Shown: positions 7,450-40,598, numbered from the stretch's first letter. The stretch: DNA of 64,000 nucleotides from a virus (IMGVR_UViG_3300022555_003200); one strand, 5' to 3'. Translations and numbers: made by a program. Notes: generated from the letters alone by a model not told the origin.

Positions 7450-7489
7450 TATATTACGGCTGTTTACGGAAAAAATTATGATATTTTTT
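7450..7489 (-). promoter_or_regulatory. Copy A of the conserved 40-nt phage promoter-like motif, on the minus strand, driving 7433-7212.
   Basis: Reverse complement reads AAAAAATATCATAATTTTTTCCGTAAACAGCCGTAATATA. It is nearly identical to four plus-strand copies. Confidence 0.6.
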
Positions 7490-7503
7490 GAACTATTTTG
7501 ATA

Positions 7504-7553
7504 GGCCAAATCGTCTGCGGGGCACCCCCCGATACCCCGCAGACGATTTGGCC
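7504..7553. terminator. Perfect 19-bp GC-rich hairpin with a 12-nt loop. It is the probable transcription terminator or 3' stabilising structure for the DUF932 gene.
   Basis: GGCCAAATCGTCTGCGGGG, then CACCCCCCGATA, then CCCCGCAGACGATTTGGCC. It sits immediately 3' of the stop at 7560 on the minus strand. It has no canonical U-tract. Confidence 0.5.
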
Positions 7554-7559
7554 TAACTA

Positions 7560-8735
7560 TTAAAACACCATTTCCAGGACCTTGCCGGCAGCCCTGTCGA
7601 TCTTGATCCTTTCGTCAGTGTAAGTGCACTCCTGAGAGAGCTCAGTGAGGCCATTGGCGATCGCCCACGCTGACCGAGGAGAGCCGTAGCGCTCTTCTTT
7701 GACGGCCACATCGTAGGCATCGGCAATGATCTTCTGAGAGAGTGGGGCCTTGGCCTTCACGGCAAACGCGATAACAGCCTCAACAACCGCTTCCTTGCTG
7801 GCACCAGGTCCGGCGAACTCAAAAGCACGTGCCTTGCGGATCTGTGCCTCAAGATCAGATACCGAAGAGTTGGCGTAGCTGATCAACTCAGCGCGAATGC
7901 TCGAAAACGCCTTGGTGTCGGCATTGCCGATGTGGCGGATGCGGACCTCTTCGACGTTTTTGGCACCCCAAACAATGTGGTTCCCGCACACCGCGTCGTA
8001 CAGGAACGACATGACACCTACGCTGGCAGCACCAACCTCAGAGTTCCAGAGGAAGAACCCGCGCCCGAGGCCGTGACCGGTACCATCGTTTACCGGATTA
8101 GTCTCGTTAACCATGAACACGAACATGTCGTGATCGGAGGCGTAGAGTCCGGCCGGTGCGATCGTGTCACCTTCATTGATGGACAAGCCACCCTTCTGCA
8201 GACGGAGAACGTCTGCGCTTGTTGCGATACGGGTACGTTCGTTCTTAACACCGGCAGGACGTGCCGGCGGAACCTGCCACCCCATCGGAACATACCTCTG
8301 GAGGCTGCTGATAATGTCCGCGTTCCAAACGCGCTTGTACTTGAGCGAAGTTGCTGCACGAAGAACCAAGCTGCCATTTTTATGGAACATAAGCTTGGCG
8401 TAGTTTTCTTCCTCATCAATTGGCTTGGTAAAGCCATGGTTAAGGTTTTGGACTGCGAGGGTTGATGGGAGTGTGCGGAGATAGCTTGCAGGAGCGTTAA
8501 CCTTCTGACAGACCTGGCCGAACGCCCAGTTCGTAAGCTTGGCTGGTATACGAGCTTTTCCGGAAACAAAGATCTCGCTGCCGTCTGCTTCAAACCGTAG
8601 GTCTGAATACTTCACTTGCACTTCTTGCGCGGACTGCTTGTACCCTTCACACGCTTGCTGCATTTCGTTGAGGTCCCAGAAACGTTCATCTGACGGACGT
8701 GTTGCCCACTGATTTGACGCTTTGAAGAGCTCCAT
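7560..8735 (-). CDS. DUF932 / TIGR03299-like phage/plasmid protein.
   Basis: Segments LVLRAATSLKYKRVWNADIIS..., GLYASDHDMFVFMVNETNP and GFFLWNSEVGAASVG are characteristic of the DUF932 family. Confidence 0.55.
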   Translation of the reverse strand: MELFKASNQWATRPSDERFWDLNEMQQACEGYKQSAQEVQVKYSDLRFEADGSEIFVSGKARIPAKLTNWAFGQVCQKVNAPASYLRTLPSTLAVQNLNHGFTKPIDEEENYAKLMFHKNGSLVLRAATSLKYKRVWNADIISSLQRYVPMGWQVPPARPAGVKNERTRIATSADVLRLQKGGLSINEGDTIAPAGLYASDHDMFVFMVNETNPVNDGTGHGLGRGFFLWNSEVGAASVGVMSFLYDAVCGNHIVWGAKNVEEVRIRHIGNADTKAFSSIRAELISYANSSVSDLEAQIRKARAFEFAGPGASKEAVVEAVIAFAVKAKAPLSQKIIADAYDVAVKEERYGSPRSAWAIANGLTELSQECTYTDERIKIDRAAGKVLEMVF

Positions 8736-8946
8736 TGTGTTTCTCCTTTTGGCTACTGTGGGGATTACCCCTACCGTGCCGCTGTACTGCTTTGCCCGGT
8801 CAACCTTGACCGTGAGAGGATACTAGCATGGTAAGCCCTTACTGTCAACATATATCGTTAATTATTTCGTATCTGTATCTTGTTGATACATAACGAGTTA
8901 CAATTACTACAAAAAATAGTTAAAAATATATTCAAATAAAAATAAG

Positions 8947-8984
8947 AAATATCATAATTTTTTCTTGAAACAGCCGTAATATAG
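8947..8984 (+). promoter_or_regulatory. Copy B of the conserved promoter-like motif.
   Basis: AAATATCATAATTTTTTCTTGAAACAGCCGTAATATAG, ending 13 nt before the ATG at 8998. Confidence 0.6.
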
Positions 8985-8985
8985 G

Positions 8986-9300
8986 ATGAGGGCACACATG
9001 AAAGACGACACCGGATTCAGTTTCAAAGATTTTACAACGCTCGAGAAGATGTTTCCAAACGGCTTCCTTATAATGCACGCGAACTCGGATGGAATGGTGC
9101 AGTATGCAAGATTTAATCCACGAAGAATTGAGTGCATTGAACTTTGGGAAAAGTGGATCGTAGAATTTGCCGAAGCACATGGTCCAAACTTCTGGAAAGG
9201 GTTTATCAACAAAGACGAAATCCCTGACTTCTTCCCAGATGAGTGGAACAACACAAGTGGCGGACTCGAAGATGTTGATCTACCACCAAACAATGATTAG
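8986..9300 (+). CDS. Hypothetical early protein.
   Basis: ORF of 104 aa. The real start is likely the ATG at 8998 after GGATGAGGG. Confidence 0.4.
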   Translation: MRAHMKDDTGFSFKDFTTLEKMFPNGFLIMHANSDGMVQYARFNPRRIECIELWEKWIVEFAEAHGPNFWKGFINKDEIPDFFPDEWNNTSGGLEDVDLPPNND

Positions 9301-9309
9301 GAGAACACA

Positions 9310-9498
9310 ATGAACGATGGATTTGTAGCAGCGATGCTTTTTATAGGCGGACTCGTTATTGGGGTGGCTATTATGATGATCGTGTGGAGTACCAATGTAG
9401 AAGGAGCCATCAAGACTCGCTTTTCACTAATCAGTGCAAGCTGTATCACATCACAGAGGTCAGTATCATTCGATGAGAGACACCAGATCAAGTTGTAA
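9310..9498 (+). CDS. Small membrane protein.
   Basis: Hydrophobic segment AAMLFIGGLVIGVAIMMIVW. Confidence 0.4.
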   Translation: MNDGFVAAMLFIGGLVIGVAIMMIVWSTNVEGAIKTRFSLISASCITSQRSVSFDERHQIKL

Positions 9499-9766
9499 AA
9501 AACATTGCTGGCATGACACCGTAGAAGTGACCGAGCGTGTGTGTCTCCAGAAAAAAGTTGGGGACTACGGAGTGTGCTCTGGAGGATTTGACGGAAAGAT
9601 AATCAAGTCGGTTAACACAAAAAGACAGATGTGCTGCCAGTGCTCTCTGGACAGGACCCCTCGTGAGCTATAAGCAGATCTCGGCGGCCATTATCGGTGT
9701 TGTGCTGGTGCTCCAGGCGTTTGCGACTAAAGGTGACATTGTTACTTTAGTCCTTGCTGTGGCCAT

Positions 9767-10216
9767 GTGCACGCTCCTAGGAGGCTGCTAATGATAAACC
9801 TATCTCCATTTCCATGGCAGAACATGACTGGTGAGACTCTTCGTTGCTACTTGGCCTCCACTGCCCCAGTTGAAGAGATTCACTTCATTATGCCGGAAGG
9901 GTGGGAAGACAAAGCTAAATGGATAGGTGTGGATACTAGTGCATGGACAAGAGAGCACTGCGCGGTGTGTATAGCTAAAGCAAGAGCCATCTGGGCCGAC
10001 GCTATGCTGGCAGAACTATCAAAAAATCTTACCGGGCAGTCTGGATACGACATACAGAGGCTAAAAATTGTTACACAAGTAGGAACAACAACGTACCCGT
10101 ACAACGGTGGAATACTGAATGAAATGAACGATGCAGTGCTACGAGCAAAAGAGCCTCCGACACTGCACAACCCCGAGCCACCGGATCCTCTAAAAAATAC
10201 CTCGAATCAAGGATAA
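9767..10216 (+). CDS. Hypothetical protein.
   Basis: ORF of 149 aa. Confidence 0.4.
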   Translation: MHAPRRLLMINLSPFPWQNMTGETLRCYLASTAPVEEIHFIMPEGWEDKAKWIGVDTSAWTREHCAVCIAKARAIWADAMLAELSKNLTGQSGYDIQRLKIVTQVGTTTYPYNGGILNEMNDAVLRAKEPPTLHNPEPPDPLKNTSNQG

Positions 10217-10375
10217 CATGCCTAAACGGATGAGAAAACAAAAGCAAAAGACAATATCATATAAAGAGTATGCCAAGAAGCTTGAAGAGATCATTGCGAT
10301 GGGCCGGCCAGTTGCGGATACGCTCATTGACTTGATAGAGGAAGCCAGCAAGTACAAAATAAAGGACAAGACAAA

Positions 10376-10699
10376 ATGAGCCTCGACGTACGTCTAACCA
10401 AAGTCATGCCAACAGACGTTTACTCGGCTAACATTACACATAACCTCGGTAAGATGGCTAGAGAGGCTGGTATTTACGAGTGTATGTGGCGCCCTGAAGA
10501 GATCGGCATAACTAAAGCATCACAGCTTATAGCCCCACTTGAGACTGGCCTTGAGGGTTTAAAGAAGGATCCTGAGTACTTTAAGAGGTTTGACTCAGGT
10601 AACGGCTGGGGGTTGTACGTAAACTTTGTTCCTTTCGTTGAGAAGTACCTTGCTGCTTGCCGGGATAACCCGGATGCAGACGTGTCGGTGTCACGATGA
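10376..10699 (+). CDS. Hypothetical protein.
   Basis: ORF of 107 aa. Confidence 0.4.
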   Translation: MSLDVRLTKVMPTDVYSANITHNLGKMAREAGIYECMWRPEEIGITKASQLIAPLETGLEGLKKDPEYFKRFDSGNGWGLYVNFVPFVEKYLAACRDNPDADVSVSR

Positions 10700-10882
10700 C
10701 CTTCCGCGAGCGTGTATCAGAAGCTCTTAAGATAAAGAATGCCTTTGATAGGGACAAGAAGCTCCGCCTGATAGTAAACAGGTTCATAGCTAAATCCGGG
10801 GTAAACCCTAGGCTCTTTGACGGAACCTTCATTAAGATCTCCAAGAGGAAGCGACACGGAGTCGATCGGAGGCAGTCTTAAA

Positions 10883-11035
10883 TGAAGAAGCTAGGTAAGT
10901 GTAAGAAAAAGTACTGCTCTTGCGGACACCGCGAAGAGGCACATTCATTTTGTGAATGCCCAGAGTGCGGCATGGAGCACTGCGAGTACGGATGCCGCTG
11001 CGAGCTACGTGACAAGGGAAAAGATCGCAAATGAC
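10883..11035 (+). CDS. Cys-rich micro-protein with a KKYCSCGHR motif.
   Basis: MKKLGKCKKKYCSCGHREEAHSFCECPECGMEHCEYGCRCE... It is a paralog-like counterpart of 11680-11805. Confidence 0.35.
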
Positions 11036-11258
11036 GAAAGACTCTGATCATTTTTGTGATTTTGAGCCACTAGCTAAGTGCCAGTACGGTGTTCCTTTCA
11101 ATGGACCTGAGGGGTGGTCTGACTGTGGTGATCCGGCGTGCTACAGGGTTTGGTGGAATGATTACAATAACGACTTCATGTTTGTCTGCAAAGAGCACTT
11201 TGACACTATTTTAAAGTCAGAAGAGGAGATCGAGTGTGGTGAAAAGAAAGAAGCTTGA
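11031..11258 (+). CDS. Cys-rich small protein.
   Basis: ORF of 75 aa with several Cys. Confidence 0.35.
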   Translation: MTKDSDHFCDFEPLAKCQYGVPFNGPEGWSDCGDPACYRVWWNDYNNDFMFVCKEHFDTILKSEEEIECGEKKEA

Positions 11259-11366
11259 GCGCACAAAACTGTGGCATGAGGCTTACGTTAACAAAGCTAA
11301 GCGAATCGTAAAGTTCTGCAACAAATGCGGCGAGTACTGGACTCTCGATGATATATGCTCTAACCC

Positions 11367-11669
11367 GTGGTGTCCGGAGGAGATGGCATGAAGATATTCG
11401 GTCTCAACGTGTTTACGGACGTAGAACTAAGAGACGTTAAACACAAGAGTCACTCCGAAGGATACAGGAGCGGGATCGAGGACGTAAAGGTTCTCCTTGA
11501 AAACAAGGAACGGCACGAGTTCTTCTTCAGTCCCGTAACTATAGTCACTGGAAACAAGCTAAAACTTAAGAACGCAGCGTTTCTTGGGGGTGGTACAACT
11601 AACTTCGGATGCGACGTCACTATTGAGGGAATGACCATACTTAAAAGTGGAGCTATTTGTACAAAATAA
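11367..11669 (+). CDS. Hypothetical protein.
   Basis: ORF of 100 aa. Confidence 0.35.
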   Translation: MVSGGDGMKIFGLNVFTDVELRDVKHKSHSEGYRSGIEDVKVLLENKERHEFFFSPVTIVTGNKLKLKNAAFLGGGTTNFGCDVTIEGMTILKSGAICTK

Positions 11670-11679
11670 TGGAGGTATT

Positions 11680-11805
11680 ATGGCAGAGCCGTTGAAGAGA
11701 ACAAGCAAGAAGTGGTGTTCATGCGGGTACCGCAACCGTAAGGGTGCCAAGGGGTACCACGAAGACGGAAACCACCACAAGGGTTCCGGCGGAAAGAAGG
11801 CATAA
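11680..11805 (+). CDS. Micro-protein with a KKWCSCGYR motif.
   Basis: MAEPLKRTSKKWCSCGYRNRKGAKGYHEDGNHHKGSGGKKA, preceded by a GGAGG ribosome-binding site. Confidence 0.35.
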   Translation: MAEPLKRTSKKWCSCGYRNRKGAKGYHEDGNHHKGSGGKKA

Positions 11806-12005
11806 TGAATTATAAACTAGGAGACAAAGTTAAGAAAGTCGGCGGAGACTACACATTTGAGGGCACGGTAGTGGCTGCTTTTAACAAGATCTCTGGAGTA
11901 GAGCGCTTTGTTGTTGAAGATGACCGTGGAGTTTTGCATGTCTACAGCGCCAAAGTACTTGCACGTTTAGAAGGAGCTAAGAGTGAAGATAACATTCAGA
12001 AGTGA
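11805..12005 (+). CDS. Hypothetical small protein.
   Basis: ORF of 66 aa. Confidence 0.35.
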   Translation: MNYKLGDKVKKVGGDYTFEGTVVAAFNKISGVERFVVEDDRGVLHVYSAKVLARLEGAKSEDNIQK

Positions 12006-12213: not shown

Positions 12214-12361
12214 ACGCTGATACAAGCAACAGCTGCCTGCCGTCAAAATCCGTATACACTCAGTATGTGACAATCCACTTCGACGTACGCGAGTATGAGC
12301 GTAAAAAGTCGTGCTGGGAGTGGAACCAGAGGTTCAAGTCTAGTCATGAGGACGATCAAAC

Positions 12362-13460: not shown

Positions 13461-13829
13461 ATGCACAGCCTCATGAAACAAGCACGTGCAGCCAGCAAAA
13501 ACGCGATTGCGCCGCACAGCGGAATACACGTTGGGTGTGCCATTCGCACTGTTTTTAAAAAAGTGTACACCGGATGGAACATCGAAGGCCCATGGATGAC
13601 GTCAATACACGCGGAAGTCGGAGCAATATCAAGGATGACTGGCCCGTTTTTAGACAGAATTGCTGAGATCGCTGTTTACGCAGAAGGAGTTAACTTTACT
13701 CCATGCGGAGCATGCCTAGACTGGATTACTCGCTTTAGCAACAGCAGCACATTGTTGTTCACACACAATGGAAAGAATGCGAGATCATTTGTTGTAAAAG
13801 AATTGTACCCAGAATATCCTAAAAGATAG
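13461..13829 (+). CDS. Cytidine/deoxycytidylate deaminase-family zinc enzyme.
   Basis: HAE and PCGACLDW motifs are spaced as in CDA-fold deaminases. Confidence 0.65.
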   Translation: MHSLMKQARAASKNAIAPHSGIHVGCAIRTVFKKVYTGWNIEGPWMTSIHAEVGAISRMTGPFLDRIAEIAVYAEGVNFTPCGACLDWITRFSNSSTLLFTHNGKNARSFVVKELYPEYPKR

Positions 13830-13832
13830 TTG

Positions 13833-13861
13833 TTGACTTTGAAATCAGTTTCTGCTAGATT
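13833..13861 (+). promoter_or_regulatory. Sigma-70-like promoter with layout TTGACT-17-TAGATT.
   Basis: Sequence lies upstream of 13985. Hexamers and spacing were read directly. Confidence 0.45.
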
Positions 13862-19431: not shown

Positions 19432-19432
19432 A

Positions 19433-23069: not shown

Positions 23070-23814
23070 ATAACAAAAGTTGCGTAGGAGGCAAAGGTGG
23101 GTTGTGTCAGCATCAGGGCGTGCCAGAGTAATACGTTGGGTGTTGCGGCTTGGCGTATGAGGGTAGGCACAGGAGTCGGAAATGGTCAGCGGTGATCGCA
23201 AACTAGCCCGCGAGAGTATCCGTAGCCCCAATACCCGGTTAGCACGAATAAAACCCCCGGGAAACTGAACCCTCATGTGGTGCTGTGGGTAACAATTTGA
23301 CAAAGAGTATTCCGGGACGCCGGCGGGTTGAAGCTCGAGGTTACAGGCGCTATTCGCTCATACAGGAATTTAAAGCGAAAAACCTACGTCGAGATACTCT
23401 TTAATTTGCGTAGTCGAATAGCGGGAAACCGTGCTATTAGGGGATAAACTCCCTAAAGTGATTGGGCTGTAGGCTTAGAAGTAGCCATCAGCTAAGAAAC
23501 GTCGCCCGGCCGTTACTCTCAGAGGGGCTAAGTAAAAACGTACCAATCTATACGGCTACAAACTAATGTTGGTGGTGTTTTTAAACTATGCTTGGGGAAA
23601 GACCGCAACCAGTGAACCAAGACCACCAATCGTTTGGAGCTGTGGCGTGTTACACGCACAGATAGTGGGGCGAGAGGCCGGTTGTTCAGAATTGACCGGC
23701 AGTGGGATGGCCAAAAACCCCGCCTCAGATGAGGAGAAATACCACTTGAGTGGACGGACATGGTGGAAGAACCCGCCGCCCCGTTCGCCGGCTCCAACTA
23801 AATAGGAGAAGTAA
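23070..23814. other. ORF-free region of 745 nt. It is a candidate large structured noncoding RNA or a cis-acting element.
   Basis: There is no credible coding frame, only short non-protein-like ORFs. It lies within a genome that is otherwise more than 90% coding. Confidence 0.4.
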
Positions 23815-25502: not shown

Positions 25503-25531
25503 TTGACAAAGTTGCAAAAACGTGGTATAAT
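25503..25531 (+). promoter_or_regulatory. Consensus sigma-70 promoter TTGACA-17-TATAAT.
   Basis: Exact hexamers with exact 17-nt spacing, followed by AGGAGG and the ATG at 25560. Confidence 0.7.
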
Positions 25532-25559
25532 ACTCTATAACTTAAAATAGGAGGATTCT

Positions 25560-26111
25560 ATGAGTACTATACCATGCAAAGTGCCAAACTGTGAGAAAGA
25601 AGCTGCAAGCAAAAGAAGTGGCCTATGTAACGCGCATTATTTTAGATTGCGTCGCCATGGATCCTATGAGCTACCAATGACCCGGCGAGAAAAACTCATT
25701 AAAGAAGGAAAGTCATATTGTCCAAAGTGTCATGAGACAAAACCTCTAGATGAGTTTGGTAAAGACATACACACGGCTTTCGGAGTGGCGTGCTACTGTA
25801 AAGGCTGCTCTAACAAGAAGGGAAAAGACAGGTACAAAAATAACAAGAGAAAACACCAAGACTACCATCGAAAAAAAGAATTTGGCGTTACTTCAGAGTG
25901 GTACGACACAATGTTTACAAACCAAGACGGAAAGTGTGCTATCTGTAGCAAACTTCAGACTCCTGGAAGGCAGCTGTCGGTGGATCATTGCCATATGTCA
26001 AGCCAGGTACGCGGGCTCCTATGTGACAAATGCAATTTCATACTCGGTCAATGTGGTGACAACATTGAGATCCTCGAGTCTGCTATACAGTATCTCAAAT
26101 GCTACCGGTAG
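25560..26111 (+). mobile_element. Endonuclease VII-family (HNH-like) endonuclease. It is a probable free-standing homing endonuclease.
   Basis: LSVDHCH...RGLLCDKCN motif plus N-terminal Cys pairs. It has its own strong promoter. Confidence 0.7.
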
Positions 26112-26164
26112 TCATTGGTAAAAGGACTGCTCAGATGTTTCACCAGCGTCTGAAAAGCTCATTA

Positions 26165-26204
26165 AAAATATCATAATTTTTTCTTGAAACAGCCGTAATA
26201 TATA
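26165..26204 (+). promoter_or_regulatory. Copy C of the conserved promoter-like motif.
   Basis: AAAATATCATAATTTTTTCTTGAAACAGCCGTAATATAT. Confidence 0.6.
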
Positions 26205-26239
26205 GTGTGTGATGCTACAACCCCCTAGAAAGGTGACTA

Positions 26240-27199
26240 ATGGCGAGACCAATCAAAGAAGGACTAGACTATTTTCCTATGGACTGCGACATCGACCAAA
26301 AACTCGAGGAGCTAGAAGCAGAGTACGGGCTTGAAGGGTTTGGGCTGTATGTGCGGATACTACAGTGGGCATACAAGGACAGATCTGGTGAGGTTGTTAT
26401 AAACGATCAGCATAACCCTAAATGGGCCTTGTGGGTACGCCGGACTGGTATTGAAGAGGATAAACTAAAAAGGATGGTCGAATACATGCTGCACATTGGC
26501 CTGTTTTCACAGAGTAGGTATGACTCGGATGGCACCCTTACTTCTGGTGGCATACAAAAGCGGATTGGTGAGGTAAACAAGAAGAGAGACAGTAACAGAG
26601 CTATTTACGGCGGCAGAAACAATACAGAAACTAGAGTTTCAGCGGGGTTTCAGACACCCGAAACCCTCCAGAAACTAGAAAATGTGGTTTCAGCGGGGTT
26701 TCAGACACCCGAAACCCTCCAGAAACTAGGGTTTCAGCAGGGTTTCAGCGGGGTTTCAGACGTCCGAAACCCTGCTGAAACGCCACAAAGTAAAGTAAAG
26801 GAAAGGAAAGAAAAGGAAAAGAAAGTAAATTGTTCGCCTGACGGCGAGTACACACCTGTTGAGTCTCCTGACAAGCCACCTAAAGAACGCAAACTTGGGC
26901 CTTCTCAAGAGGTACTCGAGCTAATGCAGTACTTCTACAAGTCGTACGAGCACAAGTTTAACCAGAAGTACTTTGCACAGAACTTCAACAACGACAGTAG
27001 GATCTTTAAAGACCTACTAGCAGGTGGGCTTGGTCCGACCAAGATACCTGTGCTCATTGATGCATTCTTTGAAGAAGACGAGGACGAGTTTGTTAAGAAC
27101 AGCACATACACTACAGGGTTATTCAAGTCAGTGATTCATAAATACTTATCTAAAATCAATCCAAACCGCTCGGGCAACCGGGTACTGAAGGTAAAATGA
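26240..27199 (+). CDS. Phage replisome organizer / replication initiator, DnaD-like with a DUF4373-type N-terminus.
   Basis: N-terminal MARPIKEGLDYFPMD...YGLEGFGLYVRIL. The mid-gene carries tandem repeats. The gene sits directly upstream of the helicase. Confidence 0.55.
   Translation: MARPIKEGLDYFPMDCDIDQKLEELEAEYGLEGFGLYVRILQWAYKDRSGEVVINDQHNPKWALWVRRTGIEEDKLKRMVEYMLHIGLFSQSRYDSDGTLTSGGIQKRIGEVNKKRDSNRAIYGGRNNTETRVSAGFQTPETLQKLENVVSAGFQTPETLQKLGFQQGFSGVSDVRNPAETPQSKVKERKEKEKKVNCSPDGEYTPVESPDKPPKERKLGPSQEVLELMQYFYKSYEHKFNQKYFAQNFNNDSRIFKDLLAGGLGPTKIPVLIDAFFEEDEDEFVKNSTYTTGLFKSVIHKYLSKINPNRSGNRVLKVK
26636..26782 (+). repeat. Iteron-like tandem repeats (GGTTTCAG / CTGAAAC elements) inside the initiator gene. 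They are a candidate replication origin.
   Basis: Two near-perfect repeats of about 48 bp, plus degenerate GGTTTCAGC copies and an inverted CCTGCTGAAAC. They encode VSAGFQTPETLQKL twice. Confidence 0.5.
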
Positions 27200-28656
27200 A
27201 CTGGCTACCATTCTGGCAGAAGTTCCTTACTGACGACGCTGTATTTGCCGAGTTCTGCGGGAAGCTCCCAAAGGACATCTTCGAAAATGCCGTGCAGAGC
27301 AACCTGCTTGAGCTAGCCTACCGCTTCGACGACAAGTACTTCAAACGCCCTACGTTCGGCGACATGCTCATGATGCTCGGGGATCTCCCGGACCATGAGA
27401 AGGCTAATATTAAGACCTACGAGAAAACCTTAAACGATATCGCGGCCGTAGTAACCGATGTAAGTACAGAAGTCCTGATCGACAAGGTCTACCAAGAGCT
27501 TGGCCGGTTCGTATTTGAGCGCAACCTCATCAAGATCGTCAACAAGATCACTCCAGGGAGCGACTACAGGCAGTTGGCTTACCAGTTCATGGAGACGGTT
27601 GAGAAGGCACCCAGGAAGCCACTTGGCGATTCGTTTGACAACTCGTTTTTCATGGAGATTGATCAGGCTATAGACCGGCAGAACAGGGACCTAGCTAGGA
27701 TTACACCGGACAAACTAGTCAAGTACTCTGTACCGGCTTTGAATGAGTGCTTGCTTGGAATATTTCCAGGGGAACTTGTTGTAGTAGGAGCCGAGAGTGG
27801 TGTCGGGAAAACTCAATTCGGCGCCGACACAGCACGCATCAATGCGATGGCTGGGAAGAAGACATACTTGATTTGCTTGGAAGGTTCAAAGAATGAGGTT
27901 ATATCTCGGTTCAAGTACGAGATCATCGCCAGGGAATACTTCTCACCCGAGAACCCCAATAAGGGGATGCCAATGTCCTACCCGCTTTATCTTGCCAATG
28001 GGTTGCGAGGGATTGAGCGCTTTGAGGCGATTGCTGAGAAGGAGTTGGCAGCACTTAGGGGTAAGTTGGTCATCTACGGCAAGAACGAGTCAGACCTTCG
28101 CATTGATAAGCTACTCCAGCAGCTCGGTAGGATACAGGATGCAGACCTTGTCGTCGTAGACCACTTGCATTACTTCGGAATGGAAGACGACTCGTCCGAG
28201 GCTTCTCAGCTCTCTGGGATCATGCGGAAGGTCAAGGACCTAACTCAGGCGCGTGGCATTCCTGTGCTTATGTTCTCCCACCTGCGCCGTAAGGCAAGAG
28301 ACAAGAAGATGCCTGACAATGATGATTTCCACGGATCGAGCAATATCGCCAAGATCGCGGATACAACACTTCTAATTGTGCGTCAGTACGACGGGGCAAA
28401 TAAAGACGTTAGCCCGACTATATTTTGTGTCGGGAAGTCTCGAAACGGGTGGGACCCTTTTTACGGATGGCTTGTCGACTTTGACAGGAGTTTAAGGTCC
28501 TATAGTGCTCCGTGGGATCTTGTTAAGATACACCCGTGGAAGGACCCTGAGGCCGTAGCATCTGATAACTGGCCAAAGTACATCATAGACATTGTTGGAG
28601 TAGAAGCATTAAACAGGGTACGTGAACGGGAAGCACAAGACAGGAGGACTAGGTGA
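27196..28656 (+). CDS. dnaB: Replicative DNA helicase of the DnaB family.
   Basis: Walker A GAESGVGKTQF, Walker B VVVDHLHYF, and RGIPVLMFSHLRRK motif H4. Confidence 0.85.
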   Translation: MNWLPFWQKFLTDDAVFAEFCGKLPKDIFENAVQSNLLELAYRFDDKYFKRPTFGDMLMMLGDLPDHEKANIKTYEKTLNDIAAVVTDVSTEVLIDKVYQELGRFVFERNLIKIVNKITPGSDYRQLAYQFMETVEKAPRKPLGDSFDNSFFMEIDQAIDRQNRDLARITPDKLVKYSVPALNECLLGIFPGELVVVGAESGVGKTQFGADTARINAMAGKKTYLICLEGSKNEVISRFKYEIIAREYFSPENPNKGMPMSYPLYLANGLRGIERFEAIAEKELAALRGKLVIYGKNESDLRIDKLLQQLGRIQDADLVVVDHLHYFGMEDDSSEASQLSGIMRKVKDLTQARGIPVLMFSHLRRKARDKKMPDNDDFHGSSNIAKIADTTLLIVRQYDGANKDVSPTIFCVGKSRNGWDPFYGWLVDFDRSLRSYSAPWDLVKIHPWKDPEAVASDNWPKYIIDIVGVEALNRVREREAQDRRTR

Positions 28657-28886: not shown

Positions 28887-28914
28887 AACCCACACTTTCG
28901 GGGGGTTAACACTT

Positions 28915-28986
28915 GCACCCATAGCTCAATGGTAGAGCAGAGGACTCATAATCCTTTGGTTCCAGGTTCGAGCCCTGGTGGGTGCA
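28915..28986 (+). tRNA. tRNA-Met with a CAT anticodon. It could instead be Ile2 if modified to lysidine.
   Basis: 7-bp acceptor stem GCACCCA/TGGGTGC, a D-arm, anticodon loop CTCATAA, and a T-arm GGTTCGAGCCC. Confidence 0.85.
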
Positions 28987-29007
28987 CTAACATAAAAGGG
29001 GGATAAA

Positions 29008-30494: not shown

Positions 30495-30854
30495 ATGAAA
30501 AGCATACTTATGGTTAGTGGATCGAGAGGGTATTGCTGTCCGGAACGCGTGCGCAGCATGGTTCGAAGGTTTTCTGATAAGGAGTGGATCTTGATTCATG
30601 GAGATTGTCCAGACTCTCCGGATGGGATTGCAGGTGAAGAGGCGGAGAGGCTAGGTATGGTGGTTGGCAAGTTTCCGTACGTTAGCTCTCTCGGCAGGGC
30701 GGGTGGCCATGTGAGAAACAGGGCAATGGTGGATATGGCCGACATGTGTCTATTTTTCTGGGACGGGGAGAGTTCTGGGACCGGAAAGACTATCGAGTAT
30801 GCCAAGGCTTCTGGAAAGGATCATACTGTATTTAGGACACAGGGGGTTGCTTGA
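30495..30854 (+). CDS. SLOG/DUF2493-like (LOG/DprA-like Rossmann) nucleotide-binding protein.
   Basis: MVSGSRGY...IHGDCPDSPDGIAGEEAERLG...FFWDGESSGTGKTIEYA pattern. Confidence 0.4.
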   Translation: MKSILMVSGSRGYCCPERVRSMVRRFSDKEWILIHGDCPDSPDGIAGEEAERLGMVVGKFPYVSSLGRAGGHVRNRAMVDMADMCLFFWDGESSGTGKTIEYAKASGKDHTVFRTQGVA

Positions 30855-31726
30855 TGTGGCAGGACACTCTTAAGAGGCAGTATAAGCACAAGGTCAATAG
30901 GGAGCAGATTATTTTAAAAGACTGCCCGTACTGTGGTGGTACAAAGTACAACCTTGAGGTGCATTCAAGTAGGGGTGTGTTCCACTGTTGGGTCTGTGAT
31001 GCTAAGGGAACGGTAAGGAAGTTTTTTAAGGATCAACACCTTGAGTTTGACGACAGTGACTGGAAGTCTAGTGAAGCAGTTGTTAGTGTAAGCAAGGAAG
31101 AACTTAGTCTTGACGGGTTTGTTCCGGTTGACTATGAGAAAAATAAAGAGTACTTGGAGAGTCGTGGTCTTACAGCGAGTGACATAGGTACTTATAATCT
31201 TCTTACAGCCACTCAAGGGCGCTATAGGGGTAAGCTCATTATCCCTCTTTATGAGGGAGGTAAAGTAGTTTACTTTGTTTCTCGCCACATGTTTTTCGGA
31301 GGTAGATATTTGAACCCGGTCATAGATAAAAAGAAAATACTTCCGTACTTCTTGGGGAGTGTTAACAGACTGCGCTTATATATTGTTGAAGGAGCTTTTG
31401 ACGCGATTTCAGTTCACAAACTTGGATTTACGGTTACTCCGCTGCTTGGGTCTGGGATTTCTGACGAGCAGGTGGACAAGATTAAGACGATAGGGTTTAA
31501 AGAGGTTGTGGTTGCTCTGGACGGGGACATCAAAGACAAAGCTATTGCGATGTATACGCGGTTAAAGGTGGCTGGTGTGCACACGAAGATAGTTTTTTTC
31601 CCTGGGAATGATGATCCTAACGAGCTTTATCTGGCTGACAGAGACTACTTGAGGAAGATCCTGACAACTCCTACAGAAGTCAGTATTAAAGACAAGTTTG
31701 AGCTTGCCCTGTATGCTAGACGATGA
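30851..31726 (+). CDS. DNA primase of DnaG/TOPRIM type with an N-terminal zinc ribbon.
   Basis: CPYCGG...HCWVC zinc-binding domain. TOPRIM motifs YIVEGAFDAISV and VALDGDIKDKA. Confidence 0.75.
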   Translation: MMWQDTLKRQYKHKVNREQIILKDCPYCGGTKYNLEVHSSRGVFHCWVCDAKGTVRKFFKDQHLEFDDSDWKSSEAVVSVSKEELSLDGFVPVDYEKNKEYLESRGLTASDIGTYNLLTATQGRYRGKLIIPLYEGGKVVYFVSRHMFFGGRYLNPVIDKKKILPYFLGSVNRLRLYIVEGAFDAISVHKLGFTVTPLLGSGISDEQVDKIKTIGFKEVVVALDGDIKDKAIAMYTRLKVAGVHTKIVFFPGNDDPNELYLADRDYLRKILTTPTEVSIKDKFELALYARR

Positions 31727-31881: not shown

Positions 31882-33324
31882 TTGATAATCCTATTATGCC
31901 CAAGTAAGTGTTTTGTTCAGGGAACCAGGGAAGAGCTTATGTGGATAAGGAGTGTGCTCACTTTTGACGTTCCAGGGGCTAAGTACTCGATGGCGTACAA
32001 GAGAGGCCAGTGGGACGGTAAGAAACGGATGTTTGACATTAGGACGGGTGTGTTTCCGATAGGGCTGTTGTCCTATGTGCTAAGGTCCGGGAAGCTCCGT
32101 AAGATTGACGTTGTGGATAATAGGAAGTTTCCGAAGGTGGACCAGGGACGCCTTGAGCTCAACACAATTGACGTTAATGATCCTGATCGGCATTACCAGC
32201 TAAAGGCGATCGACGAGTGCATTGCTAACAAGAACTGCTTAATTGAGGCTGCCACAAACGCTGGGAAGACGGCCATTTTCTCAGGGTTGATAAAGAAGCT
32301 TGCTCCGGCGCCAACTCTCGTGTTAACACACAGGTCGGAGCTGTTGAAGCAGACTGTGGAGTATATTGAAAGGTACACGGGACTTAAGTGCGGCTTCATT
32401 ACGGCGAAAGACATTCTTATAAGACCAGTTACTGTAGCTATGATTACAACTCTTGTTAATAGACTCGGAGCTGACCAGGAGGTTGATGACTATTTTAAAA
32501 GTCTCCAGTGCGTTATACAGGACGAGGTTCACCATGCTCAGGCGGCGCAGTTCACTGCTGTACTTGAAGCATGCCCGGCGCCTTACCGCTGGGGCTTCAG
32601 TGGCACGGTGCCACCTGCCAACGAATACAACGGAGTTTTGGTGAGGCAGTTTTTGGGAGACGTGGTCTACAAGATCTCAAACGACGAGTTGATAGCGCTT
32701 GACGTGTCAGCGAAGCCCAAGATCTTCATGTATGAGATGGACGTCTCAAGCCAGGTTCGCGGCGTTATCGGAATGGCCAAGGCGGAGCTCGAGGCCAAAG
32801 ACGAGCTCTATTCTGGCCAGCAGCTCATGAAGAAGGTATACGAGATGGTAGTCAAGCTCGGCATCGTGCAGAACAGCGAGCGCAACGGAAAGGCCGTCGA
32901 GATCATCAAGAACAACCCAGGTAAGTCAACTTTGATCGTGGTGGACTACCTTGAGCATGGGGAGATTGTTGAGCAGCTACTAAGTAATAACGGGATAAGT
33001 TCTGTGTTCATATCAGGAAAAGCTGCCCACAGGGCTCAGGCGTTGTCTGACTTCAAGGCCGGTAAACTACAGATACTTATTAGTACAAACATCATTGACG
33101 AGGGAATTGACATCAGCCGGATTGAAGTGTTAATCCTTCTTGCTGGTAAGAAGTCGCGCCGGCAGTTGCTTCAGAGGATAGGTAGGAGTCTTCGCCGTAA
33201 GGAGGGAGAAAATGTTGTGTCGGTGTACGATTTTTGCGACCACGGTAATAAATACTTACTTAAGCATTCGAAAGAAAGAATGTCTATATACAAGCAAGAG
33301 CAGTTTGAAGTAGAGTTTTGCTAG
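31882..33324 (+). CDS. Superfamily-2 DNA helicase (DEAH-like).
   Basis: Motif I AATNAGKT, motif II VIQDEVHH, and motif VI QRIGRSLRRK. Confidence 0.8.
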   Translation: MIILLCPSKCFVQGTREELMWIRSVLTFDVPGAKYSMAYKRGQWDGKKRMFDIRTGVFPIGLLSYVLRSGKLRKIDVVDNRKFPKVDQGRLELNTIDVNDPDRHYQLKAIDECIANKNCLIEAATNAGKTAIFSGLIKKLAPAPTLVLTHRSELLKQTVEYIERYTGLKCGFITAKDILIRPVTVAMITTLVNRLGADQEVDDYFKSLQCVIQDEVHHAQAAQFTAVLEACPAPYRWGFSGTVPPANEYNGVLVRQFLGDVVYKISNDELIALDVSAKPKIFMYEMDVSSQVRGVIGMAKAELEAKDELYSGQQLMKKVYEMVVKLGIVQNSERNGKAVEIIKNNPGKSTLIVVDYLEHGEIVEQLLSNNGISSVFISGKAAHRAQALSDFKAGKLQILISTNIIDEGIDISRIEVLILLAGKKSRRQLLQRIGRSLRRKEGENVVSVYDFCDHGNKYLLKHSKERMSIYKQEQFEVEFC

Positions 33325-33360
33325 TTATTGCTAGTTTATTATACGTGTAAAATAGTTCAA

Positions 33361-33398
33361 AAAATATCATAATTTTTTCCGAAAACAGCCGTAATATA
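33361..33398 (+). promoter_or_regulatory. Copy D of the conserved promoter-like motif.
   Basis: AAAATATCATAATTTTTTCCGAAAACAGCCGTAATATA. Confidence 0.6.
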
Positions 33399-33413
33399 GA
33401 GTGAGGTGATGAT

Positions 33414-33701
33414 ATGGGCTATTACATTCAGACTCCAGGGCATAACACGGGTAAGGCGCAGAGGATATGCGAAGAGCATCAAGAAGCGTTTATTATCCCG
33501 CGACCGACTGTGTTTGCTAAGGTTCCTGATAACATGGGTCTTGTTTGTGTGATCGATAACGGTCTTTTTGACGCTGCCGGATACTGCTATAACTTAAGGG
33601 AGTTTTTGGAGTTCAGCAACCCAGATGATACGCGCCCAAAGACGTGGTTGCTCATGGATAAAAAGAAAGCGGAGAAGCTCAGCGGGTATACGCTTAAATG
33701 A
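33414..33701 (+). CDS. Hypothetical protein.
   Basis: ORF of 95 aa. Confidence 0.35.
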   Translation: MGYYIQTPGHNTGKAQRICEEHQEAFIIPRPTVFAKVPDNMGLVCVIDNGLFDAAGYCYNLREFLEFSNPDDTRPKTWLLMDKKKAEKLSGYTLK

Positions 33702-34595: not shown

Positions 34596-34596
34596 C

Positions 34597-35145: not shown

Positions 35146-35150
35146 CAAGT

Positions 35151-35420
35151 TTGGGGCATAGGGAGTTCCTATACACTTTACTATGACAAAGAGATACTCC
35201 CCGCCCCAGCAGTATTGCGGCAAAGGCTGTTCCTAACATATCAGACGAGGCCCTTAGGGGCCTCGATACATAGCGAACTACAGCCCGCTGCATAACTTCT
35301 GGCATAAGAGGTTCCTAATAAAAATGGGCGCACCCTTCGGGGTGCATAAATACCTCTCGCCAGTAACACAGAGGCATAAACGGTTCCTACAAACTTCTAT
35401 CTGAGAAAATACCGTTCGCC
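35151..35420 (+). ncRNA. Array of four tandem stem-loop units. Each has the conserved GGCAUAA...GUUCCUA motif with covarying stems.
   Basis: Stem pairs are GGGAGU/ACUCCC, GGCUG/CAGCC, AGAGG/CCUCU and AACGG/CCGUU. They flank loops that begin UUCCUA. Internal hairpins include a C(UUCG)G tetraloop. Confidence 0.4.
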
Positions 35421-35443
35421 TCGTCACTAACAGGAGAAACACA

Positions 35444-37399: not shown

Positions 37400-37575
37400 A
37401 TGCGTGGATAAATCAACCGGAGGTGTTGCGTGCGTCAGGTGACAGAGTGGTGTGAGAACAAGAGAGAGCTTCAGTTTGCTTTTGATCAGATCGAGAAGTA
37501 CGAGCCCGGTGTTGCTGTGTTTAAGCGGCGCGTAGAAGAGGATGTAGAGCAGTTTTGCGTCTGTAAGGCAACGAA

Positions 37576-37806
37576 GTGAGTGAACGAAAGCCGTATTCAT
37601 GCTGCGGCGGAGATCCTACGTGTTGGCTAAACAAGACAGAGCGGTTTATAGACAGCTTGTTTGCTCTGTACAGCACGGATCCTGAGGCGGCTAAGGACAG
37701 TCTGTTTTCGTACATGGAGTCAGTAGAGATGGACCGGGATTGGGCCCGGGCAAAACTAAAAGAAGCTATAAATAATATAATACCAAAGAAGGAGGATCGC
37801 ACGTGA
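37576..37806 (+). CDS. Hypothetical small protein.
   Basis: ORF of 76 aa. Confidence 0.3.
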   Translation: MSERKPYSCCGGDPTCWLNKTERFIDSLFALYSTDPEAAKDSLFSYMESVEMDRDWARAKLKEAINNIIPKKEDRT

Positions 37807-38153
37807 GCGTACGGGAAAAGCTAAAAAATATATTTAGTAAGCCGATATTGAGCACCATTGGGTTGGTTGGGCTTATCTTTTTTGATGTGTGCCTGATTGC
37901 CATCTGTTTCATTTGCCATCAGTATTGGTGGGCGTTCTTTTGGATTGGGATCACGGCTCTTGTGGGAATGTTTGAAGGATTGTCTTATTGTGTCACTGGA
38001 CATACCATTAGTCAATGGTGGTGGATTTGGTCTGAGTCAAGTCCTCAGATGATGTGGTGGAGTCTTGCCGCGGCGTTCTGTTTCTACGCGGCTATGACCT
38101 GCCTTCTTCTTCATCTTATTTCACCCATTTTGGCCAAGCTAGCAGGTAACTAG
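37803..38153 (+). CDS. Membrane protein with 3-4 TM helices.
   Basis: Hydrophobic and Trp-rich. Confidence 0.4.
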   Translation: MSVREKLKNIFSKPILSTIGLVGLIFFDVCLIAICFICHQYWWAFFWIGITALVGMFEGLSYCVTGHTISQWWWIWSESSPQMMWWSLAAAFCFYAAMTCLLLHLISPILAKLAGN

Positions 38154-40540
38154 TGGTCAATGTTGCAAAGCTCATATCTGCTAAGAATGAAGACAAAACT
38201 AAGCGAGAAGAATGCGCCAAGTGCCCATACTTGTCGCGTATTTTTGTTCCTTCGTACACCTGCAACAATGATTTAGTTGTTGTTGGTGATGCTCCAACAG
38301 GGATTGACGCTGTTGAAGGGGTTCCATTTGGCGGTGAGAGCGGAAAGCTGTTCAGAAAGACACTATCACAGGTAGGTTTTAACGTATCACAAGTAACTTT
38401 TACGAACGCATGCCGGTGCAACCCGCCAGCGAATGAGCCTCCAAAGAAGAAGGCTCTGAAGCTTTGCACTGGCATGTATCTTTTTAATGAGCTAAAGGAT
38501 CTAAAGCCGAAGCTTGTTGTGCTTGTCGGAGCAGCAGCTCTGGAGGCGTTTTTTCCCAAAGAACGCATCATGAGTAGGGCCGGTAATTTCATGCAGACTA
38601 TGGGCATGACTTTTCTTCCTGTTATCGACCCGGCATATTGTATTCGTAATCCAACTTCCCTACCAAGGCTTAGAAAAGATCTTAATACGGCCCACCGGTA
38701 TCTGCACAACGATCTTGGTTCGGATAACAACTTTATCGTTGTGGACACCGAAGATAAGCTTGCCGCGGCGTATAGCGATCTTGTGTTGGCCTCACCAGAG
38801 CTCATTAGTTTTGACGTTGAGACTAATGAGATGCTTGACGTTTTTGACAAGGCGATGAATCTATGGAGTTGCGGATTTGGCCTTGGTGGAGGGAAGTGTT
38901 ACTCGGTTCCTTTGGACCATCCTGAGAACGTTAACATTGAGTTCCGTGATAAGTGTTGGGATCTAGTGAGGACTGTCATGTCAGGACCGTCTAAGAAGAT
39001 CGCACACAATGCCGCGTTTGACCTTAAGGTTCTCGTGAAGATGGGGGTTTCCTATAAGAACTTTTACGCTGATACGATGGTTATGGCGTTTTTACTTGAC
39101 GAGAACAGGCACTCGATAGGCCTTAAGCAGCTGTCAGCAGAGTACCTGGATGGGTGCATGTTCGAGTTTACGAAGGACATGGTAAAGCTGTGCATTTACA
39201 ACTGTGAAGACTGCAACAACACCATGGGGCTGTTTCGCAAGTTTGAGCCCGAGATCCGGCTTAGCCCGGTAATGTGGAGCCTGTTTGAGACTGTTTTGAT
39301 GCCGATGATTGAGGTTATTGTTGGTATGGAGCTTGAAGGGGTTCTCATAGACACTGCCGCGAGTACAGCACTTGCTGGAGATATTCACAGAAGGCTCGAG
39401 GCCGTGTATGAGGCTATCGCTGACACATACCCTGAGTCAAAAGATGTTAACCTAAGCTCTACTAAGCAGTTACGTGATCTTTTGTTTAAGGTACTGAAAT
39501 ATCCTGTTCTCAAGAAGACAGAGTCTGGATTACTAAGTACCGATAATGAGGTTCTTGAGAACCTGTCAAGGCAGGGGTATAAGCTGGCGACGTATCTAAT
39601 CAGAATACGTAAGCATGAGAAGATGCTTTCAACCTATGTGGAGAAGCTTCCGGGGCTTATAAAGGACGATGGTAGGCTTCACGGTAATTTCAATATCTGT
39701 GGTGCCCGCACAGGACGGCTTTCCAGCTCAGGGCCAAACCTCCAGAACATCCCTAGGGACAAGGCTGTAAAGAAGATGTTTGTGGCCTCTCCCGGATGTA
39801 TTCTGCTTCAGGCAGATGCCAGTCAGATGGAGCTCAGGGTGGCTTGTTCTGTTGCTCCGGAGCCGACAATGATACAAGCCTACCAGGATGGGCATGATAT
39901 TCATCGTTTAACGGCCTCTAAGGCCCTCCACGTTGCAGAGAAGGACGTAACCAAGGATCAGCGTCAAATCGCTAAGGGGATCAATTTTGGCTTTGTTTAC
40001 GGGCAGTCTGCAGAAGGGTTCCAGGTGTACGCAGAGACGAAGTATGGGGTTAAGTTGTCGATTGAAGAGTGTAGGGCTTTTCGTAACGCGTACTTCTCAA
40101 CGTATACGGGTTTTGAACCCTGGTACGCCAGGACCAGACGTGTTTTGTCAAAATGCGGGTTTGTGGAGTATCCTACAGGAAGGATGCGCCGGTTTCCAGA
40201 GGCAAAAGGCGTATTAGCAACCAATGTACCTGATGATATCACTAGGCAGGCCGTAAACAGTCCTGTTCAGGGCAGTAGTTCAGACATGATTTTGTTTACG
40301 ATGGTAAGGATGCGACGAATCATAGCCAAGTATAAGCTACCCGTCAGGACGATTCTTACGGTCCATGACTCAATAGTGTTTGAGGGCCCCGAGGAGCCTC
40401 TTTACGATGTTGCTCATGAGATGAACAGTGTATGTTCCATTGACCTTCCTAGAAGCTTTTCGTGGCTAAAAGTGCCTATGAAGTTTGATTACTCGTTCGG
40501 CAAGAACTGGGGCGAACTAGAGGAGGTCAAGGTGAACTAA
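38153..40540 (+). CDS. polA: Family A DNA polymerase fused to an N-terminal family-4 uracil-DNA glycosylase domain and a 3'-5' exonuclease domain.
   Basis: UDG4 motifs VVGDAPTG...GVPFGGESGKL with Cys ligands. ExoI motif FDVETN. Pol motif B RQIAKGINFGFVYGQS. Motif C VHDSIVFE. Confidence 0.9.
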   Translation: MVNVAKLISAKNEDKTKREECAKCPYLSRIFVPSYTCNNDLVVVGDAPTGIDAVEGVPFGGESGKLFRKTLSQVGFNVSQVTFTNACRCNPPANEPPKKKALKLCTGMYLFNELKDLKPKLVVLVGAAALEAFFPKERIMSRAGNFMQTMGMTFLPVIDPAYCIRNPTSLPRLRKDLNTAHRYLHNDLGSDNNFIVVDTEDKLAAAYSDLVLASPELISFDVETNEMLDVFDKAMNLWSCGFGLGGGKCYSVPLDHPENVNIEFRDKCWDLVRTVMSGPSKKIAHNAAFDLKVLVKMGVSYKNFYADTMVMAFLLDENRHSIGLKQLSAEYLDGCMFEFTKDMVKLCIYNCEDCNNTMGLFRKFEPEIRLSPVMWSLFETVLMPMIEVIVGMELEGVLIDTAASTALAGDIHRRLEAVYEAIADTYPESKDVNLSSTKQLRDLLFKVLKYPVLKKTESGLLSTDNEVLENLSRQGYKLATYLIRIRKHEKMLSTYVEKLPGLIKDDGRLHGNFNICGARTGRLSSSGPNLQNIPRDKAVKKMFVASPGCILLQADASQMELRVACSVAPEPTMIQAYQDGHDIHRLTASKALHVAEKDVTKDQRQIAKGINFGFVYGQSAEGFQVYAETKYGVKLSIEECRAFRNAYFSTYTGFEPWYARTRRVLSKCGFVEYPTGRMRRFPEAKGVLATNVPDDITRQAVNSPVQGSSSDMILFTMVRMRRIIAKYKLPVRTILTVHDSIVFEGPEEPLYDVAHEMNSVCSIDLPRSFSWLKVPMKFDYSFGKNWGELEEVKVN

Positions 40541-40548
40541 AATATTTA

Positions 40549-40598
40549 AAAAAATATCATAATTTTTTACGTAAACAGCCGTAATATAGAGTGAAGGA
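40549..40598 (+). promoter_or_regulatory. Copy E of the conserved promoter-like motif.
   Basis: AAAAATATCATAATTTTTTACGTAAACAGCCGTAATATA. Confidence 0.6.

Follow-up and report, generated by a model that had tools for sequence, protein, structure and literature searches.

In phage SPO1, transcription is switched from the host factor sigma-A to gp28 and then to gp34 (PMC13401047), and jumbo phages which lack an RNA polymerase of their own but encode sigma factors are known (PMC7824862). The early promoters of T4 are very strong and consist of UP, -35, TGn and -10 elements, while its middle promoters, as exemplified by PuvsX, combine a sigma-70 -10 element with a MotA box at -30 (PMC2988021). Promoters read by sigma-28 carry TCTAAAG at -36 to -30 and GCCGATAA at -15 to -8, in which GC serves to extend the -10 (PMC12784957). 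The stretch of viral DNA considered here (IMGVR_UViG_3300022555_003200; all 64,000 nt of it are referred to as the window) contains five copies of an intergenic element that can be compared with these systems. The element is in all likelihood a promoter, and very probably represents a phage-specific promoter class, designated class II to distinguish it from the host-type (class I) promoters in the same DNA. Judging from the genes that follow it, class II would drive the replication and recombination blocks, and also two small-gene blocks, in an uncultivated phage of ~202 kb.

Anatomy and placement of the repeated element

The sequence-only reading of this DNA had reported five near-identical copies of a 40-nt element, each 13-40 nt upstream of a gene start in the correct orientation, and all five are present where it placed them (Table 1). 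The core, AAACAGCCGTAATATA, is exact at 7450-7465 on the minus strand and at 8968-8983, 26187-26202, 33383-33398 and 40573-40588 on the plus strand, and the upstream block, AATATCATAATTTTTT, is exact at the same five places; in each block all 16 bases are common to the five copies. The near-identity thus holds, but the length was underestimated, as the conserved unit is AAAAATATCATAATTTTTT-(c/a)NNN-AAACAGCCGTAATATAGAGTGAGG, which spans ~48 nt and has only 3-4 variable positions. It is the largest and top-ranked repeat family in the window (family D1). By chance, 0.45 core sites would be expected, and five or more sites occurred in 0 of 100 dinucleotide-preserving shuffles; the window has no extra site at up to three mismatches. 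Five is also the total for class II in the ~76 kb examined of the ~202-kb genome.

Every copy is intergenic and co-oriented with the next gene. Since gaps sum to only ~5.5% of the rightward-transcribed part, the probability of finding five of five copies intergenic and co-oriented by chance is estimated at ~1e-8. TAATAT within the element lies 20-44 nt from the start codon and the end of the motif 14-37 nt from it, in keeping with the spacing reported earlier, and the copies hold a fixed proximity to ribosome-binding sites in strict orientation. The element lacks significant secondary structure (DNA folding z from -1.2 to +0.7 over all five copies) and has no match in Rfam, for which a tRNA is the sole find in the window. 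Folding and Rfam together rule out a hairpin, terminator, riboswitch or leader RNA.

TAATAT, which is invariant in the five copies as well as in three other loci (L006, L012 and L013, described below), fits the TAnnnT pattern of a sigma-70/sigma-A -10 element. A promoter scan called none of the five copies as a -35/-10 promoter on TAATAT. The hexamer located 17 bp upstream, ATAATT, matches TTGACA at two of six positions, and the bases before TAATAT are GCCG, so there is no TG-extended -10. The element is therefore not a standard sigma-70 promoter, as had been claimed, and differs in these respects from the five class I promoters of the window. The accompanying claim that a conserved -35 at 17-bp spacing is lacking is correct for a TTGACA-like hexamer, but ATAATT is itself conserved at that position. 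A second repeat family (D3) aligns the DNA preceding copy 5 with host-type promoter sequence at 43256-43285; the A-tract segment upstream of promoter 43275 is shared with that of copy 5 and is followed by TTGACT opposite CATAAT, which indicates that the upstream block of the element occupies the -35 position. Within this block, an A/T inverted repeat of 7 bp, AAAAAAT-N6-ATTTTTT, has its centre near -35.5, and in the window copies TAATAT is flanked by invariant sequence on both sides (6 nt, CAGCCG, before it; 7 nt, AGAGTGA, after it).

In the proposed layout, TAATAT would be the -10 element at -12 to -7, and ATAATT, within TCATAATTTTTT, would serve as a non-canonical -35 hexamer followed by a 17-bp spacer whose last 6 nt are the fixed CAGCCG. 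The phased A-tracts further upstream (AAAATAGTT..AAAAAA) would form an UP-like region. AGAGTGA would provide the discriminator and start site and is followed by the Shine-Dalgarno sequence, hence leaders would be very short.

The genes downstream of three of the copies give class II its predicted function. Copy 3 heads the replisome-organizer/DnaB block, as the sequence-only reading held; in addition to the replisome organizer, the block includes genes for a DnaB-like helicase (27196-28656), a primase (30851-31726) and a second helicase (31882-33324). The block behind copy 4 consists of the 95-aa gene, a zinc-ribbon gene, an AAA_28 ATPase, a 651-aa protein and a PolA-UDG polymerase (38153-40540). 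Copy 5 is followed by a conserved 157-aa gene, a gp32-like single-stranded-DNA-binding protein (41102-42073) and a UvsX/RecA-like recombinase (42147-43256). The 157-aa gene had been described as UvsY-like, a description that finds no support, as Pfam UvsY gave no match at E<=1 and the PHROG families matched are of unknown function. Even so, it is conserved in the clade, where gp32 and UvsX are its neighbours.

Counterparts in related phages

Polymerase homologs (47-68% identity, on contigs up to 216 kb) delimit a clade of uncultivated phages, and the four relative loci compared (L012, L013, L014 and L016) are syntenic with the window. The exact element of the window is absent from these loci, even at 12 mismatches. 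Inspection of the orthologous gaps revealed diverged versions of it, namely GTTAAAAAAGCAGTAA(C/T)TTTT...GAGGC-TAATATATAGTGA in L012 (two copies) and AAGTT(T)AAAATT...TAGCC-TAATATATAGTGA in L013 (three copies). TAATATATAGTGA is found at 0 mismatches in phages whose polymerase is 61-68% identical, in the same two slots, namely those that follow the helicase gene (copy 4 in the window) and the polymerase gene (copy 5). In farther relatives, with polymerases of 52% and 47% identity, decayed versions precede the ortholog of the 157-aa gene. This gene is 80, 71, 62 and 46% identical in L012, L013, L014 and L016, and ahead of these orthologs the element is increasingly decayed (TAATATAGAGTGA, TAATATATAGTGA, TACTATATAGTAG and TATTATAATAATGA). 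A repeat scar with no positional conservation in relatives had been named beforehand as the outcome that would count against a promoter; diverged versions in the same two slots are what was found.

The relatives keep TAATATA(T/G)AGTGA, and the sequence upstream of it varies. The -10/discriminator core is accordingly clade-wide, while each phage has its own -35 block and its own 6 nt ahead of the -10 (CAGCCG, TGAGGC or rTAGCC). All relatives have canonical host-type promoters, whose position after recA/uvsX is conserved as well. Because class II varies from phage to phage while class I stays canonical, the comparison points to a fast-evolving reader rather than to a conserved primary sigma factor alone. 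The element is almost certainly conserved across this new phage clade as a phage-specific promoter class.

Wider searches recovered a single further relative of the element. A 29-base pattern of the full element had no match in IMG/VR. A 22-base pattern gave six metagenome matches, one genome match and one viral match, with flanks shared only by L006/L008; the matches in Patescibacteria and groundwater have the core alone in common and were rejected as chance matches. The 16-mer core had 42 IMG/VR matches, 41 of them with unrelated flanks. L006 (identical to L008, a 13-kb stretch) is part of the 119-kb contig Ga0209083_1000121 and holds a 47-nt element, upstream of a receiver-domain gene, which is 86-93% identical to the five window copies. 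Beyond the element, no DNA or protein similarity of L006 to the window or to any clade locus was found. Its GC content is 47.7%, compared with 47.4% for the window.

The candidate sigma factor and competing explanations

The sequence-only reading had assigned a sigma factor to 59107-59712. The product is a genuine sigma-70-family protein, but the alignment of orthologs moves its start to ATG 59155, the earlier start being 16 codons too early. The protein passes TIGR02937 for the sigma-70 superfamily (58.9 bits, cutoff 42.9) and matches Pfam Sigma70_r4 at 1.8e-8. Among PHROGs it matches only generic sigma families, and it is far below every sub-family cutoff, with SigB/F/G and FliA/WhiG the nearest through region 4 only. 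An AlphaFold (AF2) model with a predicted local distance difference test score (pLDDT) of 83 shows sigma-2 and sigma-4 domains and a disordered linker, and the top Protein Data Bank matches of the model in Foldseek are all sigma factors (SigB, sigma-S, SigD, sigma-E and WhiG). A profile search identified 16 orthologs, all restricted to the clade; one shares the 215,958-bp contig ERZ28656093 WOOD18-1 scaffold_36 with the L012 element copies and another is on the 214,834-bp contig ERZ27247363:k141_3129171. The order ~650-aa protein, sigma gene, ribonucleotide reductase (RNR) and portal is conserved in the clade. Nineteen of the 20 invariant columns in the sigma alignment belong to the half with sigma-2, and the recognition helix of sigma-4 varies, which parallels the conserved -10 core and variable -35 block of the element. 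No second sigma paralog was found in the window or in any locus examined, and no convincing terminator separates promoter 43275 from the sigma gene.

The ~650-aa protein encoded directly upstream (57189-59141), whose gene overlaps the sigma gene across the clade, contains the Pfam domain MJ0330_N and has a weak terminase-like PHROG match.

In the best-supported reading, to which an even chance is given, the 185-aa phage sigma reads the class II element. This reading draws indirectly on the joint presence of sigma and element in the clade, on their parallel patterns of conservation and on the location of the sigma gene behind a host-type promoter. Host sigma-A polymerase would first fire the canonical class I promoters (TTGACA/TGnTAnnnT), and the one at 43275 would head the unit that contains the sigma gene. 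The phage sigma, consisting of sigma-2 and sigma-4, would replace sigma-A on the host core polymerase and then direct it to the five class II promoters, and the predicted outcome is a delayed-early or middle replication/recombination regulon. The label of a middle-class regulon, which the sequence-only reading took from gene content only, is plausible. More tentatively, the element and the 185-aa sigma might constitute a previously undescribed, clade-restricted sigma/promoter pair of uncultivated ~200-kb phages from environmental metagenomes, with unusually long (~45 bp), phage-specific recognition, in which changes in the sigma would be matched by changes in the -35 block and in the 6 nt next to the -10, with host-type promoters remaining canonical. 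If this were true, the L006 copy in an otherwise dissimilar contig would show the promoter travelling as a portable cassette, and pairs of this kind would amount to natural orthogonal transcription switches.

Several points weigh against control of class II by the phage sigma. The start site and the -10/-35 assignment of the element are predictions made from the sequence. Copy 2 heads a cluster of small genes with an early look. Matches of the element to group 3 sigma consensuses are short, A/T-rich and partial (5/8 and 4/7 positions), and region 2 of the sigma is only modestly better conserved than region 4 (0.68-0.76 vs 0.56). As the analysis covered ~76 kb of the ~202-kb genome, an RNA polymerase or further factors may be encoded in the remainder. 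A sigma ortholog was not found on the element-bearing L013 (114 kb) or L006 (119 kb) contigs, a result that counts only weakly as the search was word-indexed and the contigs are incomplete. The sigma gene lies only ~6.8 kb before the portal module, where a role in late gene expression is possible. The 302-nt gap near the portal (L017 6084-6385, ~65.4-65.7 kb) contains a strong intrinsic terminator, a T-run and a related A/T-rich box, GCCGTTATAC, and has no class II element. The sigma may serve late genes instead.

Alternatively, host sigma-A could read TAATAT while an unrecognised phage activator or co-activator binds the block from -45 to -26 and replaces the sigma-4/-35 contact, as do MotA/AsiA in T4 or Mor/C in Mu, with the phage sigma reserved for late genes. 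TAATAT does fit TAnnnT, but an upstream activator does not explain why the 6 nt before it and the downstream AGTGA are fixed. The inverted repeat near -35.5 could be the site of a dimer, yet the A- and T-runs are contiguous in L013 (AAAATTTT) and the spaced dyad is therefore not conserved. T4 offers a precedent, since its logic for uvsX and replication genes is a sigma-70 -10 element plus a MotA box at -30 (PMC2988021), and the position of the sigma gene close to the structural module would suit a late function. However, neither MotA, AsiA, Mor nor any other transcription-factor family was recognised among 78 further open reading frames (ORFs) or in targeted scans, although for the MotA and AsiA PHROG families this is a weak negative, such proteins being small and divergent. 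Activation of this kind is considered unlikely.

It is also improbable that unmodified host polymerase reads the element, either with sigma-A aided by the A-tract UP-like region in an unusual early promoter or with a group 3 alternative sigma of the host (sigma-28/sigma-D-like). The upstream AAAATAGTT/A-tract segment is common to class I promoters, and copy 2 lies in a divergent control region beside a strong host-type promoter, where it heads many small genes. With neither a -35 nor a TG, however, the element should be weak for sigma-A alone, and class I is invariant across the clade whereas class II diverges phage by phage. As for a group 3 factor, GCCGTAAT and TCATAAT are in register with the sigma-28 elements GCCGATAA and TCTAAAG, but it would be unusual for a phage to place its replication genes under a flagellar or stress sigma of the host. 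The consensuses of sigma-E, sigma-G/F and extracytoplasmic function (ECF) factors were compared as well; the element has partial A/T-rich matches to several of them, which do not discriminate and were not relied on.

Least probable is that promoter activity is not the main role of the element, which would instead be a target for recombination or homing, a place where a replication or packaging protein binds, or a regulatory cassette that moves between phages: L006 shares only the 47-nt element and otherwise looks unrelated, identity within the genome (~44/48) exceeds what promoters usually need and homing-endonuclease-like genes are common in the clade, but no endonuclease gene is consistently adjacent, the -35/-10-like geometry aligns with a bona fide host-type promoter, orientation and proximity to ribosome-binding sites are strict, and the orthologous positions in relatives, with divergence that tracks phylogeny, indicate vertical inheritance and not recent spread.

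Genome setting and comparison with described systems

Over the 3,979 bp compared, the window and a 202,599-bp metagenome contig (ERZ27245625:k141_1198851) are 100% identical, and a second assembly matches at 99.96%. A near-identity search of GenBank phages with 20 kb of the window found nothing relevant, and hence the phage has no described close relative. Genes left of ~8.8 kb are directed leftward and all others rightward.

Table 1. Coordinates of class II copies, the candidate sigma gene, host-type promoters and the hairpin near copy 1.
Feature	Coordinates	Strand	Description
Class II copy 1	7442..7489	-	TAATAT 7456-7451; precedes 73-aa SWIM zinc-finger gene 7212-7433(-)
Class II copy 2	8944..8991	+	TAATAT 8977-8982; heads rightward cluster of ~20 small genes; likely start codon ATG 8998
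Class II copy 3	26163..26210	+	TAATAT 26196-26201; precedes replisome organizer 26240-27199
Class II copy 4	33359..33406	+	TAATAT 33392-33397; between helicase gene and 95-aa gene 33414-33701
Class II copy 5	40549..40596	+	TAATAT 40582-40587; abuts polymerase stop codon; precedes 157-aa gene 40619-41092
Candidate reader, two-domain sigma-70-family factor (185 aa)	59155..59712	+	sigma-2, disordered linker, sigma-4; no sigma-3
Host-type promoter TTGACA-17-TG-TAGAGT	3704..3732	-	
Host-type promoter TTGACA-17-TG-TAGTAT	8820..8848	-	divergent from copy 2; drives 391-aa DUF932 gene 7560-8735(-)
Host-type promoter TTGACT-17-TG-TAGATT	13833..13861	+	
Perfect host-type promoter TTGACA-17-TATAAT with TG (12/12)	25503..25531	+	before EndoVII/HNH-like gene 25560-26111
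Host-type promoter TTGACT-16-TG-TAGCAT	43275..43302	+	heads long unit with SbcCD, GroES/EL and sigma gene
25-bp perfect hairpin	7505..7555	-	-51.6 kcal/mol, z=-11.7; no flanking U-tract; in gap between DUF932 gene and copy 1

The five class I promoters of the window conform to TTGAC(A/T)-16/17-TGnTAnnnT, each of them with a TG, and a sixth host-type promoter lies just left of the window. The 25-bp hairpin is a probable insulator or terminator that separates class I and class II transcription units. A short motif, (A)AAATAGTT, is found directly upstream of promoters of both classes (3735-3745, 13823-13832, 33349-33357 and, on the minus strand, 7497-7505) and in inverted form in the portal-proximal gap (L062 7639-7650); it may be an UP-element-like or protein-binding module. 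The EndoVII/HNH-like gene just upstream of copy 3 encodes 183 aa, and its arrangement behind a perfect sigma-A-type promoter (window 25503-26111) recurs in L012 (1484-2520). These genes are likely free-standing homing endonucleases with host-type promoters of their own.

An iteron-like tandem array, GGTTTCAG(C/A)GGGGTTTCAGAC..CCGAAACCC, lies at 26626-26782 inside the replisome-organizer gene and is a probable replication origin; the direction of transcription from copy 3 runs into it. A tRNA-Met gene (anticodon CAT) is found at 28915-28987, inside the block of replication genes. The polymerase is a fusion of PolA to a family-4 uracil-DNA-glycosylase (UDG) domain (PF03167+PF01612+PF00476) that is kept across the clade, and relatives of the DNA polymerase were not found in IMG/VR. 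The nearest relatives of the UvsX-like recombinase, at ~32% identity, are from SPO1/SP-10-type Bacillus phages. Other genes of the phage encode SbcCD, GroES/EL, NAMPT and a class II RNR, and a T4-type portal gene with an intein is situated just past the right end of the window; in relatives, inteins interrupt portal, recA and helicase genes. Genes for the biosynthesis of 7-deazaguanine (queuosine precursors; QueC, QueD/PTPS, FolE and QueE) are present in relatives as well, which suggests modified DNA.

Some gaps between genes have an organization of their own. The gap at 35146-35443, before the 651-aa gene, contains four GGCAwA-N4-5-GTTCCTA repeats interleaved with GC-rich hairpins, and the same architecture, with five GTTCCTA repeats and CCCCGAAAGGGG hairpins, precedes the 655-aa ortholog in L012 (5839-6357). 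The segment at 23070-23565 is a relatively GC-rich, ORF-free region of ~500 nt in which Rfam finds no match and neither a promoter nor a terminator is obvious. The portal gaps of relatives (L019 18536-18786; L020 16189-16701) contain a terminator, a T-run, TATATA and a box, TATATATA, and in a portal-module gap TATAAATG is located 25 nt before the next start codon. This arrangement may represent a distinct late promoter class.

A phage-specific promoter class that is plausibly read by the phage's own small sigma follows a familiar pattern of gene control, met here in a new lineage of phages, and since the re-targeting of host polymerase by phage sigmas is textbook knowledge from SPO1 and T4, current understanding is not challenged. 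What the window adds is a clear promoter map for a lineage of uncultivated jumbo phages, with a host-type class and, set apart from it, a phage-specific class that would head the replication and recombination modules. With a candidate cognate sigma identified, the temporal programme of these phages may be predictable from sequence, and the sigma/promoter pair could serve as an orthogonal expression part.

Uniform promoter units are known from other phages. The promoter-early stem-loop (PeSL) units of T4-type phages are mobile regulatory cassettes, and the 23-bp promoters of T7-type phages are highly uniform. Class II resembles both in placing near-identical promoter units between gene modules, and the PeSL units further in that one copy is preceded by a strong stem-loop and one near-identical copy occurs in an otherwise dissimilar contig. 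It differs from PeSL units in that a stem-loop accompanies only one of the five copies, and from the T7 type in that the ~76 kb examined showed no single-subunit RNA polymerase.

The likeness to sigma-28/FliA promoters is one of register, as TCATAAT of the element falls at -36 to -30 and GCCGTAAT at -15 to -8, and of composition, as a G/C-rich 'extended -10' abuts an A/T-rich -10. The best sub-family matches of the phage sigma are likewise SigB/F/G and FliA/WhiG. Only 5/8 and 4/7 positions of the elements match, however, and since these matches are short and partial the resemblance is a lead only. The phage sigma has no sigma-3 domain and does not belong to the FliA/WhiG family, as it scores 27.7 bits with FliA_WhiG against a cutoff of 189.6.

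As in T4 middle promoters, the -35 gives way to a phage-specific element beside a good -10 (TAnnnT), the genes controlled would be of the uvsX, gene 32 and replication type, and strong early promoters coexist. The phage also shares gp32, UvsX, a gp46/47-like SbcCD and a T4-type portal with T4. In contrast, the sequence from -35 to -26 is ATAATTTTTT and not a MotA box, the polymerase is a PolA-UDG fusion whereas that of T4 belongs to family B, and a full two-domain sigma, lacking in T4, is encoded. T4 late promoters, which involve gp55, gp33 and gp45, have TATAAATA at -10, no upstream requirement and a sigma with region 2 only. A reading of the element as such a promoter was rejected, as its core is TAATATAG, the upstream 30 nt are conserved and the phage sigma has region 4.

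The SPO1 middle consensus is AGGAGA-N17-18-TTTNTTT, to which the class II sequence is unrelated. The phage sigma is not detectably an ortholog of gp28 and belongs to a clade-restricted family of 16, and class II is far more uniform, with ~44/48 positions fixed. In overall design the proposed scheme follows SPO1, and also the jumbo phages that encode sigma factors but no RNA polymerase. Host sigma-A-type early promoters coexist with a second class of different consensus, this second class heads replication genes, and a small sigma-70-family factor is encoded with no RNA polymerase found in the ~76 kb examined. Of the gp28 paradigm, this genome has the phage factor of the sigma-70 family and the distinct consensus upstream of non-early functions.

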